From the NCBI GenBank assembly GCA_024278835.1, contig JAJRSK010000042.1, positions 30-64,029 of the forward strand: a stretch of DNA of 64,000 bases, read 5' to 3'. The notes beneath the pieces were generated by a model. That model had not been told where the DNA came from. It was given only the letters and a program-made list of their open reading frames with translations, and did no database searches. A program made the translations under genes and the position numbers. Of this stretch, positions 20,959 to 46,977 are shown in pieces (within the stretch, counting starts at the first letter, position 1; the number at the start of each line of letters is the position of its first letter). Source of the stretch: Campylobacterales bacterium. Lineage in GTDB: Bacteria > Campylobacterota > Campylobacteria > Campylobacterales > QNZT01.

Positions 20959-21491
20959 ATGGGTTTAATTGATATATTGATGAATAGTGGCAATGGTGAT
21001 TTACTAAAACAGATAGGACAAAAAGCAGGCGTGAATGAGACACAATCTAGGGACTTGCTAAGTACACTTGGTTCAGCGATGCTTGGACAGGTGAAGGGAA
21101 GAGTAGAGAGTGGTAGTCATGACTCTACAGGGCTAGAAGGACTCATTAAAAATAGTAAGTATGCTGAAATGATTGATGAACCATCTCATCACTACAATGA
21201 TAGAAAAATGGCAGACAACGGTAATGATCTTTTGAAATATATCACCGGTTCCAAAGAGGGCTCTCGTGAAGTAGCTTCACAAGTTTCTAAAAAACAGGTG
21301 TAAGTTCTTCAATTATCAAGTCACTACTTCCTATGATAGCACCGATGATTATAGGTAGTCTTGGGAAAGGCTTGATGGGTGGTGGAAATCAAAAATCTGG
21401 CTCCTCTGGGCTAATAGGTATGCTTGACTTTGACCATGATGGTTCTGTCATAGACGATGTCGCAGGACTTGCGATGAAATACCTATTTTAA
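20959..21491 (+). pseudogene. DUF937-family protein gene interrupted by a frameshift in an A6 run
   Basis: ORF 20959-21303 stops just after AAAAAA (21289-21294). The next frame continues open as GVSSSIIKSLLPMIAPMIIGSLGKGL...LAMKYLF to TAA 21489-21491. Adding one A restores one 177-codon ORF. Confidence 0.6.
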
Positions 21492-25203: not shown

Positions 25204-26435
25204 ATGCAAACTCCTAATAGACTAAAACCATTTTATGAAAACTTAGTATTTGAAAAAGAGGGCAATCAAATGATTGTCAACTTTGGCCCACAGCACCCTT
25301 CCGCGCATGGACAGTTACGACTGATTCTTGAACTAGATGGTGAACAAGTTGTTAAGGCTGTTCCTGATGTAGGTTACCTACACCGTGGTATGGAAAAGAT
25401 GGCTGAAAACATGATATATAATGAGTATCTTCCAACAACAGATAGAATGGATTATATCGCAGCTGCGTCAAACAATTATGGTTTTGCCTTGGCGGTTGAG
25501 AGACTCTTAGATATCGAAAAGAGATTCCTAGACGTGCAGAAGTTATCAGAGTGATGCTTTTAGAATTAAATAGAATTATTTCTCACCTTTTCTGGCTTGC
25601 TACACATGCACTTGATGTTGGGGCTATGTCAGTATTTTTATTTTGTTTCCGTGAACGTGAGTTTGCTATGGATCTTATGGAAGATTATTGTGGTGCGAGA
25701 CTGACACATTCTGCTATCAGAATCGGTGGTGTACCACTAGACTTACCATCAGATTGGATAGACAATCTTCATAAATTTATCACGAAGATGCCTGAAAATA
25801 TCGCCGATTATGAGGGGCTTTTAACAGAAAATAGAATCTGGAAAATGAGACTTGAGGATGTAGGTACGCTAACAGCCCAAGAAGCGATGAGTTGGGGTTG
25901 TTCAGGACCCACACTACGTGGTTCAGGTGTGGCTTGGGATATTCGTAAGGAAGAGCCTTATGGTATCTATGATGAACTAGACTTTAAAGTGCCTGTTTCT
26001 GATAAGTGTGATTCGTACGGAAGATATAAGTTATATATGGAAGAAATGCAACAATCAGTTGATATATTGCATCAGTTGATTCCTAAGTATAAAGAGAGTC
26101 CACATGGATTGATGGCGAAAGTGCCTCAGTATATGTCGGCAACGAAAGAAGAGTTGATGACAGATAACTTTGCTTTGATGCAACATTTTGTTTTAGTTAC
26201 GCAAGGTATGAGACCGCCGGTAGGGGAAGTGTATGTAGTGACTGAGTCACCAAAGGGTGAACTTGGTTTTTATATCAACTCGCAGGGAGATCCATACCCA
26301 TATAGATTGAAAGTAAGAGCACCTAGTTTCTTCCACACAGCGTTGTTGCAAGAGATTTTAGTAGGTACTTATTTGGCGGATGTTGTTACTATCATTGGTA
26401 ACTTAAATATCGTTTTTGGTGAAATTGATAGATAG
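25204..26435 (+). pseudogene. nuoD: NADH-quinone oxidoreductase subunit D, reading frame broken once (frameshift between 25500 and 25554)
   Basis: ORF 25204-25554 ([10 protein letters not shown]...) and ORF 25551-26435 (...[14 protein letters not shown]...) are the N- and C-terminal parts of NuoD. The second frame is open from 25500 and reads [12 protein letters not shown]. Adding one A in GAAAAG (25517-25520) fuses them. Confidence 0.85.
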
Positions 26436-35780: not shown

Positions 35781-37661
35781 ATGGAAAAATATGTATATAT
35801 AGCACTTTTTGCTCCGTTAGTGGGGTCTCTGTTTGCCGCTATTTTTGGTGCTACACCAAAGAAGTTGTTTGTAGGCATCGTGACAAGTGGTCTTTTGTTT
35901 ACTTCGTGAGTGGCATCAATCATACTTTTGATGAATGTGCATGGTGAGCATACGATTCATGTAAAGATGATGGATTGGATAGCTGCTGGGGGATTTGACC
36001 TTGATTTTGGCTTTATGGCTGATCAAGTTTCTGTTATCATGATGGTAACGGTGACTACGGTTTCAACACTGGTACATGTCTATTCTATAGGGTATATGGA
36101 TCATGACAAGGGCTTCAATAGATACTTTTCATATCTTTCAGCATTTGTATTCTCAATGATGATACTTGTTATGAGTGATAACTTCTTGGGTCTATTTATA
36201 GGTTGGGAAGGCGTTGGTGTCTGTTCTTGGTTACTTATTGGTCACTGGTACTTTAAAGAAGATGTTAGTACAGATGTCAATCCTGCGATTTCTCCTTCTT
36301 ATGCAGCCAATGAAGCATTTGTGATGAATAGAATAGCTGATCTTGGTATGCTTATCGGTATTTTTATGATTTATTGGAATCTTGGTTCTTTAAATTATGA
36401 TGTTGTCTTTGCCAATATAGGTACATTGAGTCATGGTACAATTACAGCTATCGGTATTTTCTTATTTATCGGAGCTATGGGTAAATCAGCACAATTTCCA
36501 TTGCATACTTGGCTTGCCAACGCGATGGAAGGTCCAACACCAGTTTCTGCATTAATTCATGCGGCAACAATGGTTACAGCCGGTGTCTATTTGGTGATTA
36601 GAAGTAATGAAATTTATATGTTGATTCCAAATGTAGGATATTTTATCGCTTGTCTTGGTGCTTTTGTTGCAGTATTTGCTGCGTCAATGGCATTGGTCAA
36701 TATGGAACTTAAAAGAATCATCGCTTACTCAACACTCTCACAACTAGGATATATGTTTGTAGCGGCTGGACTTGGTGCTTATTGGATAGCACTTTTCCAC
36801 CTTATGACACACGCATTTTTTAAGTCTGTTCTTTTCCTTGGTGCAGGTAATGTTATGCATGCTATGGATGATGAAAGATATATCAATAAAATGGGTGGAC
36901 TTGGTAAAGTCTTACCATGGACGATGGGTATCATGACGGTTGCTTCTGTTGCCCTCGCGGGTATCTGGCCATTGGCTGGTTTCTTCTCAAAAGATAAGAT
37001 TTTAGAGACAGCATTTGCTGAAAATCACTATATATTATGGGTAATGCTTTGGATGGGTGCTGGTATGACAGCGTACTATAGTTTTAGACTCATTATGATG
37101 GTGTTTTTTGGTAAGAAAAACTATGGTACTGAGAAACATCCACATGAAGCGTATACATTTGTTATCGTTGCGATGTTACCATTGGCAATCTTAGCAGTTA
37201 TTGCTGGTTTCTTTGAACATCCATTTATGCACTATGTGACGCAAGTTTTACCAGAATATCATCCACATGTAAGTACAGGTACTTTTATCTTCTTATTAGT
37301 GGTGACATTAGGAATTGCATTGAGTGGTATTGCCTTGGCAATCATCAAGTTTTCAAAAGGTGATTTCGATGACTTTTTTAGAAAAATTGGGGTACATAAA
37401 GTGTTGTCAAATCAATACTTTATACCACAGTTTTATGCTGATAAAATAGTGAAGCCTTATGGTGCTTTGTCTAAATTGGCGTGGAAGATAGATATGAAGA
37501 TAGTGGACGCGACCGTTGATATGATCGCAGGAGTCATCTATAAAACAGGTGATAAAGCAAGATGGATGCAAAGTGGTAACTTATCAAACAACTTAAGATG
37601 GATGGTCTTTGGTTTGGTGATTTTACTGTTACTTGCAGTTATTTATAGACCTGGTATGTAA
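35781..37661 (+). pseudogene. nuoL: NADH-quinone oxidoreductase subunit L with an in-frame TGA at codon 43
   Basis: ATG 35781 opens MEKYVYIALFAPLVGSLFAAIFGATPKKLFVGIVTSGLLFTS, then TGA (35907-35909). The same frame continues as VASIILLMNVHG... to 37661. The ORF track only reports 35910..37661. Confidence 0.8.
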
Positions 37662-43297: not shown

Positions 43298-43430
43298 ACT
43301 TTTCAAATCTATAAAGATTAAGATAGATATTTAAGTTTAGTTTGTTACAGTTGTAAGGGTATATCATGATATAGAACTTTGGTTTTCTGTAAAGATTTAA
43401 ATTTTTTAGACAATGATAGGAAAATTTTAC

Positions 43431-46009
43431 ATGAATAAGAATTTAGTAAGTAAAAGTTTATCACTATTGGTGCTACCATTATTGATAGGCTGCGGTGGAT
43501 CTAGTGATCCAACTAGTAGTGTAGTTTCAGAAACAGACAATAGTTCTGTTACAAAAATGGGGGGGGTTCTAAAATCCTTTCAAATGGTCAAGCGATGTCC
43601 ATCATCCCCAAACAAGCAACAGGTAATGGTGACTACTATCTAGCACCAAGTGTAAAGTTTGCCAAGATAGGTATGGGAAACCATGTAACAGAGATGACTT
43701 ACATCGATGAAAATGGTGACAATCACTATGGATTAGATAACATCTTCAAAACACATCTCAAGGTGATGTCTTTAGATATGCACTATAACTCTAGCAATGC
43801 AAGAGATGGCTATGTAGATATGGGACACTGGAGGACAAGCTTTACCTCTCGTATGGACTTTCCTATCAACGAAGGGGATATCAAAGACAAGTCAAACTTT
43901 TATGATACGCCTAGAGATGCTTGCGAGAGTGGATTTGCTGATATAAAAGAGAGTGCTTATAGAGGGATTTTAAAAGAGGCTACTTCAGTCTATGATAAAG
44001 ACCATGATATGTGTATCCTCAAACAAGATGGAAAAGATATCGGTAAATTTATCGTATGGAATCGAAGTCAAAAAAGAGATGATGTTCACTATATAGAGAC
44101 AGCTGCACAAGAGTTTTTAACCTTTGTTAAAAATGATGAAGGCAAGTTTGTATCTGAACAAAGTGGTATCGTACTTGAACTAACACAAGAGGAAAATGGT
44201 GCATTTAGCTACAAAGATGCACAAGACATCCTCAGACGCTATAACAGTGATGGAAAACTTGTCTATATCATGAAAGAAGGACAAGAAGCACACCTGACTT
44301 ATGATGAGAGTGGCAAGCTAGATAAAGTGACTGGTGCTTTAGACAATGTGATAGACTTTGATTATAACGAAGATGGGCTTGTAACTGAAATCAGTATAAA
44401 TCAAGAACAGGCTAAAGTGGCAATAGACTATGATGATAAAAAGCTCTTTAGTAGTTTTAGTATGCTGGTAAGAGATAATAATGGTACTATGCAAAATCCA
44501 AATACAACGAACTTCAGTTATACAGAAAAAAATTTACTTTCACAAATAAAAATTCTTGGGAAAATAGATGAAAGCAACAATACAATTCCAGATGTCTTGA
44601 TGTATTTTGGTTATGATACTTTAAATAGAGTAGATAAAACTGAAAGTACCGCGGGAATGGAGCATTATAAATATCATTCGTTAAAGGTAGAAAAAACTTT
44701 ACATAACGGAGCTATTGTAGATTCAGATATCATCTTTTTTAAATCAAAACAGATGATAAAAAGAATGGAAGATGCTTCTATCTTAACTGAATATGATTTC
44801 AACAAAGAAGGATTGGTAAGTGAAGTTGCTTTAGCGGAAGAGGTAGAAGATAATAATTCATCAAATATACAATCAAATGCATTATCTTTAACAAAAACTT
44901 TAAATATTCAAATAGACTACAATAAAAAAGGACTTATAAAATCTCAGTATCTTGAAACATCTGATGGTACTAAAAAGTTTACAAACTATGAGTACAAGAC
45001 TCAATATAATAAACCTACAAAGGTGCTAACTGAAAAAGATGTTACATTTTTCGACTTCAATAACAAAGGTCAATTGATAAAGATGTCGTATTTGAAGTAT
45101 GATAAAGATATGAAGTTAAAATCTCATGCTCTTGAAGATATTAAACTAGAATCAGAGTATCAAGAGATATCATATGTCTATGATAAAGAGGGAATGTTGG
45201 TAAAAGCTACTGATGAAGTTGAAGGCGATATAACAAACTTTATTTCGACAAGAAATGGTGAAAGTTTAGCAGGAAACATCCAATCAAACGGTTGGAATAC
45301 TGCTATGCTATCGGGTTGGACTTTTTGGAATCCTACTTCTTGGTGGACTAGATGGGTTAAAGGATCTGTCAATGGCACAGTATATAATGTTGCAGACGCA
45401 AACACAAAAACAGCCTTTATTAGTGGAGCTGGAGGCAGTAGTGCTCGCTCTTTATATGCTTGGAATGTAAATAATAATTCTCAACATTTTCACTGGGAAA
45501 GCATTAGTTATCATCGATATTTAAGACAAGATATATTCGATAAAGGAAATGCAGAAAGGTTAGTAGTTATTGGTCATAGTTATGGGGGAGACAGCGATGT
45601 TGAAGGTGCTTGTGCTCCTAGAATTGATAAAAAGGTAGATTTATTAATCACCGTTGATCCAGTTGGAGTACAACCTCATATGCTATTTACCAGAGCACGC
45701 ACAAAGTTCTGGATAAATATATATGCTGATGCAGGAAGACAGTGGCCTGGTATCAAGATAAAGTGGAAGTGTGGCTGGTGGTATTGTTACCCTAAGTTTT
45801 ATTACTTAGATTCACAATGGCATGGTTCTGATTGGATAGCTTGGCTAGGTGGTAAAGGAAGCTATTCGTCATATGGAAAATATGTTCCTGCTAATAAACG
45901 TATAACAGTTCGAGCTCATCATGATGAAGTTCAAATAATGGTTAATGACTTACAGTCCAAATATGGAAATAACTATGATTTCAATATTAGAAACTATCTT
46001 AACCATTAA
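43431..46009 (+). pseudogene. YD/RHS-like-repeat lipoprotein with C-terminal alpha/beta-hydrolase (lipase-like) domain, frame broken at a G8 tract
   Basis: RBS AGGAAA. Lipobox LPLLIGCGGSS. ORF 43413-43643 and ORF 43595-46009 join if the G8 run becomes G9 (...TKMGGGSKILSNGQAMSIIPK...). Repeats YDESGKL, YNEDGLV, YNSDGKL, FNKEGLV, YNKKGLI, FNNKGQL, YDKEGML. C-terminal VVIGHSYGGDS, TVDPVG and AHHDE. Confidence 0.6.
43559..43566 (+). repeat. Poly-G tract (G8) inside the lipoprotein gene
   Basis: atgGGGGGGGttc. It is the longest G/C homopolymer I noticed in the window and lies exactly at the frame break. Confidence 0.7.
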
Positions 46010-46549
46010 TTTAAAGCATAACAATCACTTTATAGTGATTGTTATGCTTGGTTTGGTTTTTACTTTTAATGGTTGCACTAAAAAAGTTGATGTTGTTAGC
46101 TTTATTGAAAAGATTGATGGTCCAAATCTTGACGATTATAATCTGATTATGCAAAGACATAATAATAAAGAGATATTTAATCAAGAAGATGAAACATCTC
46201 TTTATAGGATGAGTTTTTTAATACACTTAACCTATGATAAAGATAGAGAGTACTCTCCTCCATCAATTAAGTTGGCATCATGTGATAAAAAAACAGTGTA
46301 TCCCTATTTAGTAAAAGTTTTTTTACTGATGAAAGAAATACGTATTATTTCTATTTTAAAATTAGCGAGTTGAAAGAAATAGGTTTCAGTATAGACAAAG
46401 AAGAAAATCTATGTCTTTATCAATCAGAAATACATAAAAATGGTGTATCTGGTGCTATGGAAGAGTTTAATATCCAAAGTAACAAAATAATTATACCCTC
46501 AAACGAACTTGAAAATATTGTACTAGAATATGAAAGTTTAACCCAATGA
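45975..46549 (+). pseudogene. Candidate immunity lipoprotein, frame broken at a T7 run
   Basis: MISILETILTINLKHNNHFIVIVMLGLVFTFNGCTKK (lipobox-like) overlaps the toxin 3' end. The ORF stops at 46373, but the next frame is open from the T7 run (46318-46324) to TGA 46547-46549 (TDERNTYYFYFKISELKEIGF...EYESLTQ). Confidence 0.4.
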
Positions 46550-46977
46550 AAGCCTTTATCCTCATGGCTATCATGATAAACACATACTTATCAGCAGCAG
46601 AGACAAACACAACAACCCACGCCTACTACTACAAAGGAGAACTAACATATCTCACAAAGGTAGCAGATATAAATCAAACTACTGTGTCGGAAAACAACGA
46701 AACAAACATTACAGTAAAAAAGCCAACACTCACCTATCATGATAGTGTAGGAAATCTCATCACTATCACAAATAGACTCATAGTCAAGTTTAAAACAAGA
46801 GATATCAATGTTTCTCGTGTAGAGCGTGACTACAACATCACACAGGTCAAACAAAGACGGCGTATCCATATCTTTACAGTGCCTGATATAGAAGATGTTT
46901 TAGATGTAGCCAAAGCGATATATGAAAACGAAGATGTTAAGAAGAATCAGGGTCAAAGCTTAATTCTTAACTTTTAA
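46546..46977 (+). CDS. Small secreted protein, possibly a remnant of a protease pro-domain
   Basis: Signal peptide MKAFILMAIMINTYLSAA. NRLIVKFKTRDINVSRVERDYNITQVK...VLDVAKAIYENEDVK resembles an S8-type propeptide but has no catalytic domain after it. Weak. Confidence 0.35.
   Translation: MKAFILMAIMINTYLSAAETNTTTHAYYYKGELTYLTKVADINQTTVSENNETNITVKKPTLTYHDSVGNLITITNRLIVKFKTRDINVSRVERDYNITQVKQRRRIHIFTVPDIEDVLDVAKAIYENEDVKKNQGQSLILNF

Follow-up and report, generated by a model that had tools for sequence, protein, structure and literature searches.

A candidate phase-variable YD-repeat lipoprotein toxin and its putative lipoprotein immunity partner in a vent-associated Campylobacterales lineage

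The window analyzed here, a stretch of 64,000 nucleotides from contig JAJRSK010000042.1 of a Campylobacterales bacterium (assembly GCA_024278835.1), was examined at 43413-46977 of its plus strand, where three genes are found: a large lipoprotein gene with YD/RHS repeats and a hydrolase-like 3' end (gene A), a small lipoprotein gene directly behind it (gene B), and a shortened subtilase gene. On balance, we favor the reading that gene A is a candidate for a phase-variable lipoprotein YD toxin and gene B a candidate for its immunity protein. This reading draws on the architecture of the gene A product, on a guanine tract which is conserved in position and variable in length, on purifying selection acting on alleles that are out of frame, on the toxin-type contexts in which the hydrolase domain occurs elsewhere, on the exchange of this domain as a module, and on the variability and retention of gene B; toxicity, substrate, immunity and route of delivery are predicted from these sequence features.

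In the deposited record gene A is split into an open reading frame (ORF) of 76 amino acids (aa; 43413-43643) and a second one of 804 aa (43595-46009). The first, which reads MIGKFYMNKNLVSKSLSLLVLPLLIGC-GGSS..., carries a classical lipoprotein signal (LLVLPLLIGC, with the Cys codon at 43491-43493). Its start is more likely the ATG at 43413, which is conserved in the related loci L001 and L013, than the one at 43431, because L013 has ATT at the latter position. The second frame has no stop as far back as 43540, and both frames are open over a stretch of eight guanines (G8, 43559-43566); a ninth G would fuse them, which is the state found in the intact relative L001 (...KKMGGGSKILSNGQGMSIIPKQ). 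Read in this manner, gene A consists of the start, the lipoprotein signal peptide (lipobox LLIGC) and a Ser/Thr-rich tether (43413-43558); the poly-G tract, a putative frame switch at which G9 would read M-G-G-G-S, the present product stopping at 43643; a conserved N-terminal domain in the +2 frame, delimited by an alignment of relatives (43567-44134; GDYYLAP..., MGHWRTSF and a conserved Cys pair); a YD/RHS repeat region of ∼360 aa of beta-hairpins with seven clear YD motifs (44147-45229); a Trp-rich linker without the DPxGL Rhs cleavage motif (45290-45355); and a C-terminal alpha/beta-hydrolase-like domain of toxin type (45362-46009).

An earlier note, made from the sequence alone, had proposed the same succession of lipoprotein signal, YD repeats and C-terminal Ser-Asp-His hydrolase-like domain, and this architecture was upheld. 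The LLIGC lipobox is in place; the seven YD motifs quoted in that note all lie in the 804-aa ORF (at aa 216, 236, 257, 402, 442, 488, and 529), as does the Trp-rich linker (aa 566-587), and the catalytic motifs listed there are found as GHSYGG (Ser662), TVDPVG (Asp688), and RAHHDE (His775/776). The lipobox was recognized in seven of the 11 distant representatives inspected, these seven being full-length members of the gene A architecture; in an eighth, P0016, only a lipobox-like LTVSC is present, unmatched by the pattern. The N-terminal domain behind the switch gave a weak DUF6531 match in the relative P0015, and was modeled with low confidence by AlphaFold2 (AF2).

The sites that define the C-terminal domain are, on the plus strand, a GG.G motif at 45419-45436, Ser662 at 45578-45580, Asp688 at 45656-45658, a Cys pair at 45767-45787, and His775/776 at 45917-45922. 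A phmmer search with aa 591-804 against 1.84 billion representatives returned 52 relatives, many of which share the lipoprotein-YD architecture in more distant lineages. Two of the relatives, P0031 and P0033, carry the Rhs-associated core TIGR03696 directly before the hydrolase domain (73.5 and 46.2 bits, respectively, at a cut-off of 32.5), the core ending in ...DPTGL and ...IDILGL immediately upstream of it; in a third, P0040, the domain is joined to an N-terminal Tox-PAAR-like domain, and the gene adjoins a DUF2169 gene. The place it takes in these bacteria, after an Rhs core or a Tox-PAAR-like domain, is that of a toxin and, judged by its sequence, it is a toxin-type cassette of the alpha/beta-hydrolase family. 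In alignments of 30 and 36 homologues GHSxGG and DPV are invariant, a Trp, a GG, and the His are nearly so, and a GG.GD motif precedes them. A profile built from these homologues matched, in the PDB, the esterase 7c4d (E 4.6e-6), a DUF1234 protein (E 3.8e-4), and a chlorophyllase (E 6.7e-4), followed by weaker matches to platelet-activating factor acetylhydrolase and several lipases (E ∼1e-3 or weaker), with coverage of approximately the first 110 positions. The breadth of the alignment was needed, as the same search with the narrow gene A family alignment yielded nothing significant. In Pfam, no hydrolase family reached the cut-off in any of 11 family members, with Chlorophyllase, Abhydrolase_6, and PGAP1 appearing weakly.

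The domain also appears to have moved between lineages. The N-terminal part of the window protein (530 aa) is 71% identical to those of L001 and L002 and 57-58% identical to those of L003 and L004, whereas its C-terminal domain is 63-65% identical to those of L003, L004, and L006 but only 38-39% to those of L001 and L002. This discordance indicates that the toxin-type end was exchanged between lineages, as occurs in polymorphic toxins. Such toxins are known to include alpha/beta-hydrolase domains, Tox-ABhydrolase-1 to -3 (PMC3482391, 'Lipid-modifying toxin domains'). Like these and the lipase effectors Tle1-4, the gene A domain displays a GxSxG elbow, a Ser-Asp-His order, and a C-terminal location on Rhs- or PAAR-type carriers; it differs from them in lying under the Pfam thresholds, in the absence of DUF2235, and, in its Campylobacterales version, in a 30-aa Trp/Cys-rich insertion (KCGWWYCYP). 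The conserved Cys pairs of the gene A protein fit an extracytoplasmic location.

Gene B (45975-46549, plus strand, lipobox FNGC) is split in the record into 142 and 59 aa, and forms a single ORF when an A7 run within it is read as A8 (see below). Its start is either 45975 or 46044. The ATG at 45975 gives it a proper signal peptide and makes plausible a 35-nt overlap with the 3' end of gene A; the overlap described in the earlier note is plausible with that start only. The gene B family comprises 18 proteins in a large database, with no Pfam domain. A lipoprotein of 168-227 aa directly follows gene A in every locus with downstream sequence. Different loci share 20-35% identity in this lipoprotein, and this low range holds even for the pair L001 and L002, in which the gene A products are 77-90% identical; dN/dS, the ratio of nonsynonymous to synonymous substitution rates, is 0.27-0.46. 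The conserved features are two Cys and a C-terminal SN..YTAEEIN..YEAL motif, and best matches among gene B proteins tend to follow the type of hydrolase domain. Copy number also varies: five copies stand in tandem in L004, X2/X3, from a related strain at a vent, shows one copy more than the window, and in L006 and L014 the operon ends with an additional copy. Moreover, gene B is kept where gene A has been reduced to a remnant (L014 and L015/L016), in a manner that resembles orphan immunity genes. Tli immunity proteins of Tle effectors are periplasmic or lipoproteins. The Rhs-CT gene of P0031 likewise precedes a lipoprotein gene, with no detectable homology between that lipoprotein and gene B, and in the distant relative L018 an ORF with a signal peptide begins 18 nt downstream. 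Taken together, these features fit an immunity role for gene B. The toxin-immunity pairing suggested in the earlier note has gained support, from the domain's place behind Rhs cores and a PAAR-like domain, from the C-terminal swap, and from a hypervariable neighboring lipoprotein that occurs in arrays and survives deletion of gene A.

The five tandem gene B paralogues of L004 (L004 4295-8020) are 35-58% identical to each other, with near-identical C-termini (YTAEEINAVMD.YEAL.). Two of them have near-identical signal peptides, their first 31 residues being the same. By its sequence, this array looks like the outcome of gene conversion or cassette shuffling.

The earlier note missed a conserved operon, to which both genes belong and which is truncated in the window. 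Its usual order is gene A, one to five copies of gene B, an S8 subtilase of ∼630 aa, a lipoprotein of ∼90 aa, and another of ∼300 aa; the subtilase, with a Fervidolysin-type prodomain, and the two lipoproteins follow gene B in most loci. In the window only the signal peptide and this prodomain are left of the subtilase (46546-46977, plus strand, 143 aa; 71% identical to residues 1-135 of the L001 S8 peptidase). Homology stops at ∼46950; neither the catalytic domain nor the two lipoprotein genes that usually follow are present. The junction was confirmed at full depth in an independent assembly, that of sequencing run X1. A less abundant relative in X1 (contig of 2683 nt, depth 30) has a subtilase that continues intact into its catalytic part (YAQPSFIKKV), and is ∼95% identical to the window over the shared 46818-46941.

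Elsewhere it is gene A that was lost. Remnants of 70-73 aa, consisting of the start and the last 50 codons with the same junction, are present in L014 (3960-4172), L015 (1597-1818), and L016 (432-653), and are followed by intact gene B, subtilase and other lipoprotein genes (L014, L015/L016); this deletion is old, since two of the remnants have diverged from each other. In X2/X3, gene A is deleted from 43512 to 45792, that is, from the lipobox to the last ∼72 codons, and 657 extra bases, the size of one more gene B copy, lie between gene B and the subtilase gene (46482-46532). An apparent break in the subtilase of L014 turned out to be a scaffold gap of 10 N. The subtilase genes of L006 (8462-9661) and L014 (4818-6017) differ by a synonymous divergence (dS) of 0.16, compared with 0.8-2.5 for flanking housekeeping genes; this suggests a recent exchange of the subtilase segment between the two lineages.

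Several observations weigh against the toxin-immunity reading. The AF2 model of the hydrolase domain, made from an eight-sequence alignment, reached a mean predicted local distance difference test (pLDDT) score of 48, and that of the whole protein 53; Foldseek found no match of the domain model in the PDB at E ≤0.001, the best (E 0.019) being noise. Both models being poor, it is sequence motifs and a profile match over part of the domain that speak for the fold and the geometry of the triad; with a domain-only model of this quality, the triad is supported by conservation and order rather than by geometry. The lipase-like nature proposed in the earlier note was borne out in part, by the alpha/beta-hydrolase profile matches and the conserved Ser, Asp, and His, but not by the Pfam families that define Tle effectors (e.g., DUF2235 for Tle1 and Lipase_3-like for Tle2), which were matched by none of the 11 family members at E ≤1; the remote relative P0033 alone reaches Lipase_3 (26.9 bits). 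The subtilase and the two other lipoproteins are under strong purifying selection where gene A is absent (S8 97% identical, dN/dS 0.08). Retained and highly conserved where gene A was deleted, the subtilase module should have a role beyond processing of gene A. Gene B also recurs downstream of this module (L006 and L014), and it is far more divergent than its putative target domain (31% vs 77% identity between L001 and L002). The main weakness of the immunity reading is that gene B might belong to the subtilase module's own role. Finally, no small gene of the same orientation lies downstream in L017, a distant relative, and differences in tract length were seen only between the contigs of different strains.

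These points bear most directly on an alternative that we hold unlikely, though far from negligible, namely that gene A encodes no interbacterial toxin but a phase-variable surface enzyme or adhesin, an outer-membrane esterase or lipase displayed on a YD stalk. It would then form, with the subtilase and the lipoproteins, a module for degradation of, or attachment to, particles, biofilm matrix or the surfaces of vent animals, and poly-G switching and hypervariability of gene B would reflect evasion of phages or grazers. The operon as a whole does encode envelope proteins (four lipoproteins and a secreted S8 peptidase), surface structures are classically phase-variable in Campylobacterota (PMC3068675, PMC5808241), and the selection on the subtilase module without gene A, the gene B paralogues on both sides of that module and the much faster divergence of gene B than of the hydrolase domain would all agree with such a role. 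It accounts less readily for the occurrence of the same hydrolase in other phyla where a toxin would sit, after Rhs cores and a PAAR-like domain, for the exchange of the C-terminal domain as a module, and for the tandem arrays of gene B and the retention of this gene after gene A deletion, which are typical of immunity genes.

The case for phase variation depends on which of the frame breaks in the window are real, both genes having been described as out of frame in the earlier note. The Logan contigs of run X1, which were assembled independently of the deposited record, contain 100% of the sampled words of the stretch at a depth of ∼94, and one of them (5658 nt, depth 94) spans 43300-46640. 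Over this interval it shows zero base differences from the record and one gap, an extra A at 46286, in the A7 run at 46287-46293. As the X1 contigs carry A8 in place of A7, the break in gene B stems from a consensus error in the record; the T7 run, which the earlier note had taken as the frameshift site, was ruled out. With A8, gene B is continuous (...CDKKNSVSLFSKSFFTDERNTYYFYFKISELKEIGF...LEYESLTQ) and aligns over its full length with its relatives. The G8 run of gene A, on the other hand, was reproduced in the X1 contigs. The same contigs insert an A at 21288 (in an A run of a DUF937 gene) and at 25516 (in an A run of nuoD), and read G where the record has A at 35909, the in-frame TGA of nuoL. 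All four lesions vanish at full depth; record errors, mostly A-run deletions, thus explain four of the five lesions in the window (nuoD, the DUF937 gene, nuoL, and gene B), and no biological interpretation of them is warranted. The fifth, in gene A, had been taken for a plain break, and appears instead to be a conserved poly-G switch with an orthologous tract in relatives and no decay.

Gene A has 10 homologues among 5.8 billion proteins, all from Campylobacterota-type metagenome bins and 40-61% identical to it. Further locus scans added only L003 from genome contigs and L013 from metagenome contigs (L012 being the contig already counted as L004); the family appears to be rare, since each of these scans yielded just one new locus. 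In the window, tblastn searches with parts of gene A, with gene B, and with the proteins of the operon detected neither a second copy nor remnants past 46950. The sequencing runs that contain the window sequence are mostly hydrothermal-vent metagenomes. In line with the assignment of the organism to the Campylobacterales, its IlvE shares a 90% cluster with MAGs labelled Campylobacterales and Sulfurospirillum arcachonense.

In the tract-bearing alleles the G run occupies the same codons, just 3' of the lipobox tether and ∼20 codons after the lipobox Cys, and this position is kept across lineages which are only 50-60% identical in protein. Its length, read from assembled contigs, which drop minor variants, varies. 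The allele of the window and X1 is G8, which is OFF (ON lengths would be 6, 9, and 12). G9 alleles that are ON were found in L001, with a product of 875 aa, and in L013/P0099. L002 has G7 and is OFF; so are L004/L005 and L006/L007, each seen as G7 in two independent assemblies and each with an ON length of 8. L008 is OFF with G10, as are X10, with G10, and X12, with ATA+G9, the flanks of the latter two being 95-97% identical to the window. In all, two of nine tract-bearing lineages are ON and seven OFF; L003 and P0010 are without the tract and in frame. G8 is the sole G or C run of at least 7 in the 64-kb window, for an expected number of 0.22, and in 80 kb of relatives' loci such runs occur at the tract site only, save for one C7 at the very start of contig L004.

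Despite the prevalence of OFF lengths, the coding sequence behind the tract is maintained. The ORFs of ∼800 aa were free of internal stops in all eight alleles compared, five of them OFF, and their overall dN/dS was 0.10-0.27 at a dS of at least 0.6; between L001 (ON) and L002 (OFF) it was 0.10 for the N-terminal and 0.15 for the C-terminal part, at a dS of 0.6-1.0. Because the gene is usually out of frame, yet is under purifying selection and has conserved a hypermutable tract, the G run of gene A appears to fit the definition of a contingency locus. Poly-G/C contingency loci have been described in Campylobacter jejuni and Helicobacter pylori (PMC3068675, PMC5808241, PMC2831843). Like them, gene A codes for a predicted surface protein, has its G run (7-10 long) within the 5' coding part, shows ON and OFF lengths in different strains, and comes from the same bacterial order. 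Its host, however, belongs to a free-living vent-associated lineage, and the C. jejuni and H. pylori loci control glycan-modifying, restriction, and flagellar genes, whereas gene A encodes a toxin-like YD protein.

The tract is found in a second setting as well. In runs X2 and X3, contigs of ∼1.3 kb join window positions 43454-43616 to 46603 through 875 bases of unrelated sequence. In this second arrangement from the same samples, the signal peptide, the G8 tract, and the first gene A codons are followed by the 875 bases and then by the subtilase gene, and the switchable leader of gene A may drive a different cargo.

We consider it improbable that the islet is simply decaying, with gene A a recent pseudogene, its G run a mere mutational hot spot, and the locus on its way to being lost. 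In favor of decay, OFF alleles make up seven of the nine tract-bearing lineages, the window has a truncated subtilase and none of the lipoprotein genes downstream of it, gene A has been deleted outright in L014, L015, and X2/X3, and in L009, where the G run is replaced by GTAGGTACAGGT, a frameshift separates signal peptide and body at a non-repetitive site outside any homopolymer (L009 2893-3090), so that this allele may be a true pseudogene, or else a contig error. But decay would not be expected to leave an uninterrupted 2.4-kb ORF in each of five independent OFF alleles, nor a dN/dS of 0.10-0.27, nor a tract at the same codons in such divergent lineages; ON alleles do exist (L001 and L013/P0099), and two ON in nine does not differ significantly from the one-third expected of a freely slipping tract (binomial estimate, p ∼0.38).

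Quite improbable, too, is the proposal that G8 is leaky, transcriptional or translational slippage providing a low, constant fraction of full-length protein, in which case the tract would be a dimmer and not a heritable switch. Most alleles are one base off the ON length (G7 vs G8, G8 vs G9, and G10 vs G9), and in other systems RNA polymerase slips on runs of 7-10 identical bases. In bacteria, however, transcriptional slippage is documented mostly for A/T runs, and tract lengths in the DNA differ between near-identical strains, which is the signature of replication slippage.

The repeat region ties gene A to the Rhs/teneurin group without making it a typical member. The window protein scored 21.1 bits with Pfam RHS_repeat, just below the cut-off of 22, all 11 family members matched this model (best E 6.4e-10), and NCBIfam NF041261 (RHS_core) aligned to a partial stretch of the window protein. 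In the AF2 model of the 804-aa ORF, with its overall pLDDT of 53, scores were ∼75-83 at about aa 180-340, mostly 50-70 beyond, and below 50 at aa 458-523. Foldseek matched the repeat model to RhsA, Tse5, Tse15, VgrG-linked Rhs cores, teneurins, and TcB/TcC, with E-values of 1e-17 to 1e-10 but template modeling (TM) scores of only 0.1-0.2. These matches agree with the YD/RHS-like assignment of the repeats in the earlier note. At ∼360 aa, the region is about a third of a full Rhs core, the matched Rhs chains being of 1021-1414 aa. TIGR03696 found no match in the window protein, P0002, or P0004, and the DPxGL motif was not found in the Trp-rich linker. Because its repeats are this short and the TIGR03696 core with its cleavage motif is absent, gene A is not filed as a strict Rhs gene, and its product is a YD-repeat lipoprotein. 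The earlier note's statement that neither an RHS cleavage motif nor a type VI secretion system (T6SS) or contact-dependent inhibition (CDI) system is visible held over a wider range: the window protein has no PAAR match, no T6SS genes were found in the window locus or in relatives' flanks, and no PAAR, VgrG, or CdiB-type partner was found in the window or in the ∼100 kb of those flanks. It is very unlikely that gene A is a conventional T6SS Rhs effector with its secretion genes elsewhere in the genome. Such effectors are the best Foldseek matches and one domain relative (P0040) is fused to Tox-PAAR-like, but the family conserves a cleavable lipoprotein signal with a lipobox, has neither a PAAR domain nor a TIGR03696 core, has repeats far shorter than the ∼1000-aa cores of the matched structures, and has no T6SS genes in any flank examined.

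Set against known systems, the parts of the locus are of familiar kinds (YD polymorphic toxins, the Sec-exported WapA type, the Sec/subtilisin RHS class, SitA, and poly-G contingency loci). With the Rhs/YD toxins of T6SS (RhsA, Tse5, Tse15; PMC8636562, PMC10684867), gene A shares the YD/RHS repeats, an exchanged C-terminal domain of toxin type and a small gene directly downstream, and its hydrolase domain itself is found behind genuine Rhs cores (P0031 and P0033); in place of coupling to PAAR or VgrG it has a lipoprotein signal, it carries a poly-G switch, and its ∼360 aa of repeats, with no Rhs core or DPxGL autoproteolysis motif, are probably too short for a closed cocoon. The earlier note had held that YD toxins normally require T6SS or CDI, which overlooks Sec-exported YD toxins, namely WapA of Bacillus and Streptococcus (PMC12704120) and those RHS toxins that are classed under type II secretion system (T2SS)/Sec export and have processing proteases of subtilisin type (PMC3482391, Table 1). 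These resemble the proposed gene A system in export by a general pathway, in surface YD repeats, and in a C-terminal toxin with an immunity gene downstream, and most gene A loci likewise encode a subtilase nearby. Unlike them, the gene A protein belongs to a Gram-negative host and is lipid-anchored by a lipobox rather than wall-associated; its toxin-type domain is an alpha/beta hydrolase where theirs is a nuclease, a lipoprotein signal is carried by the candidate immunity protein as well, and the subtilase, whose processing role is putative, persists without the toxin.

The SitA lipoprotein toxins of Myxococcus, delivered by TraA/TraB-dependent outer-membrane exchange (PMC5562445, PMC8546572), are similar to the proposed gene A system in architecture: a lipobox at the N-terminus, a toxin at the C-terminus that is polymorphic, an immunity gene next door, and delivery that requires no injection apparatus. 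SitA is without YD repeats, its delivery requires TraA/TraB, and it acts in the cytoplasm, whereas the lipoprotein immunity candidate of gene A suggests a target in the envelope. As to the undescribed delivery mode envisaged in the earlier note, the lipobox that would point to a lipoprotein route is present, but since Sec-exported YD toxins and SitA are known, the mode is less novel than first stated. In the literature searched we did not find the combination of a YD carrier that is a lipoprotein of Gram-negative bacteria and has no Rhs core, a hydrolase cassette that recurs on Rhs and PAAR carriers and has no Pfam family, a lipoprotein immunity candidate, and a conserved phase-variation tract.

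The islet which holds these genes lies at different chromosomal places in different lineages (flanks of L001, L002, L004/L005, L006, and L015), and repeatedly adjoins toxin-antitoxin modules (HepT/MNT, BrnT/BrnA, and MqsA-like) and nucleotidyltransferase genes. The products of the two extra operon genes (L006 10376-11566, L009 8051-9245, and L008 5157-5886) are both lipoproteins; their C-terminal motifs are conserved, and they match no Pfam family. The 90-aa lipoprotein of the operon is marked by the motif HIRVLEFD..SKIPEYLVKLPI, and the 300-aa one by VDESYDAS.TP... and a calcium-site-like end, VDTDGDG.ADE.

In the mechanism that we propose for the toxin-immunity reading, gene A would be exported through Sec and Lol as a lipoprotein whose mature part comprises the N-terminal domain, a short YD/RHS beta-sheet stalk, and a Ser-Asp-His hydrolase of esterase/lipase type. 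The poly-G tract would be read as Gly-Gly-Gly, and changes in its length by slipped-strand mispairing would toggle the gene ON and OFF; in the dominant population of the window genome, G8 would be OFF and G9 ON. In ON cells the protein would be exported by Sec, lipidated, transported by Lol, and anchored in the outer membrane, where it would probably be exposed at the cell surface, released in vesicles, or cut off by a protease. By contact, in vesicles, or after proteolytic release, the hydrolase could reach neighboring cells and attack a component of their envelope, most likely a membrane lipid; the periplasm or the membrane is the probable site of action because the neighboring gene B product is a lipoprotein. 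Gene B, as a fast-evolving lipoprotein facing the periplasm, would neutralize the hydrolase in the producer, and OFF cells would be spared its cost or risk and still be immune. The window locus would represent a trimmed version of the conserved operon, OFF by its G8, immune by its intact gene B, and devoid of the subtilase module.

Tentatively, and with less confidence than we place in the toxin candidate itself, vent Campylobacterales could be using a bet-hedged, lipid-anchored polymorphic YD toxin that needs no T6SS, CDI, or Rhs cleavage core, that is switched ON by poly-G in a fraction of the cells, and whose lipoprotein immunity gene is constitutively intact and retained as an orphan after deletion of the toxin. 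If true, this would amount to a machine-independent route for YD toxins in Gram-negative bacteria, via Sec and Lol to display on the outer membrane, a route for which the examples to date are mainly WapA in Gram-positive bacteria and the SitA lipoproteins. Interbacterial antagonism would come under stochastic ON/OFF control by a contingency tract, a pairing not found in the papers searched, and poly-G phase variation would extend from host-adapted Campylobacter and Helicobacter to their deep-sea relatives. There would also be a compact family of Ser-Asp-His hydrolase toxins without a Pfam model, common to Rhs, PAAR-like, and lipoprotein carriers, with the lipoprotein immunity candidates as its companion family.

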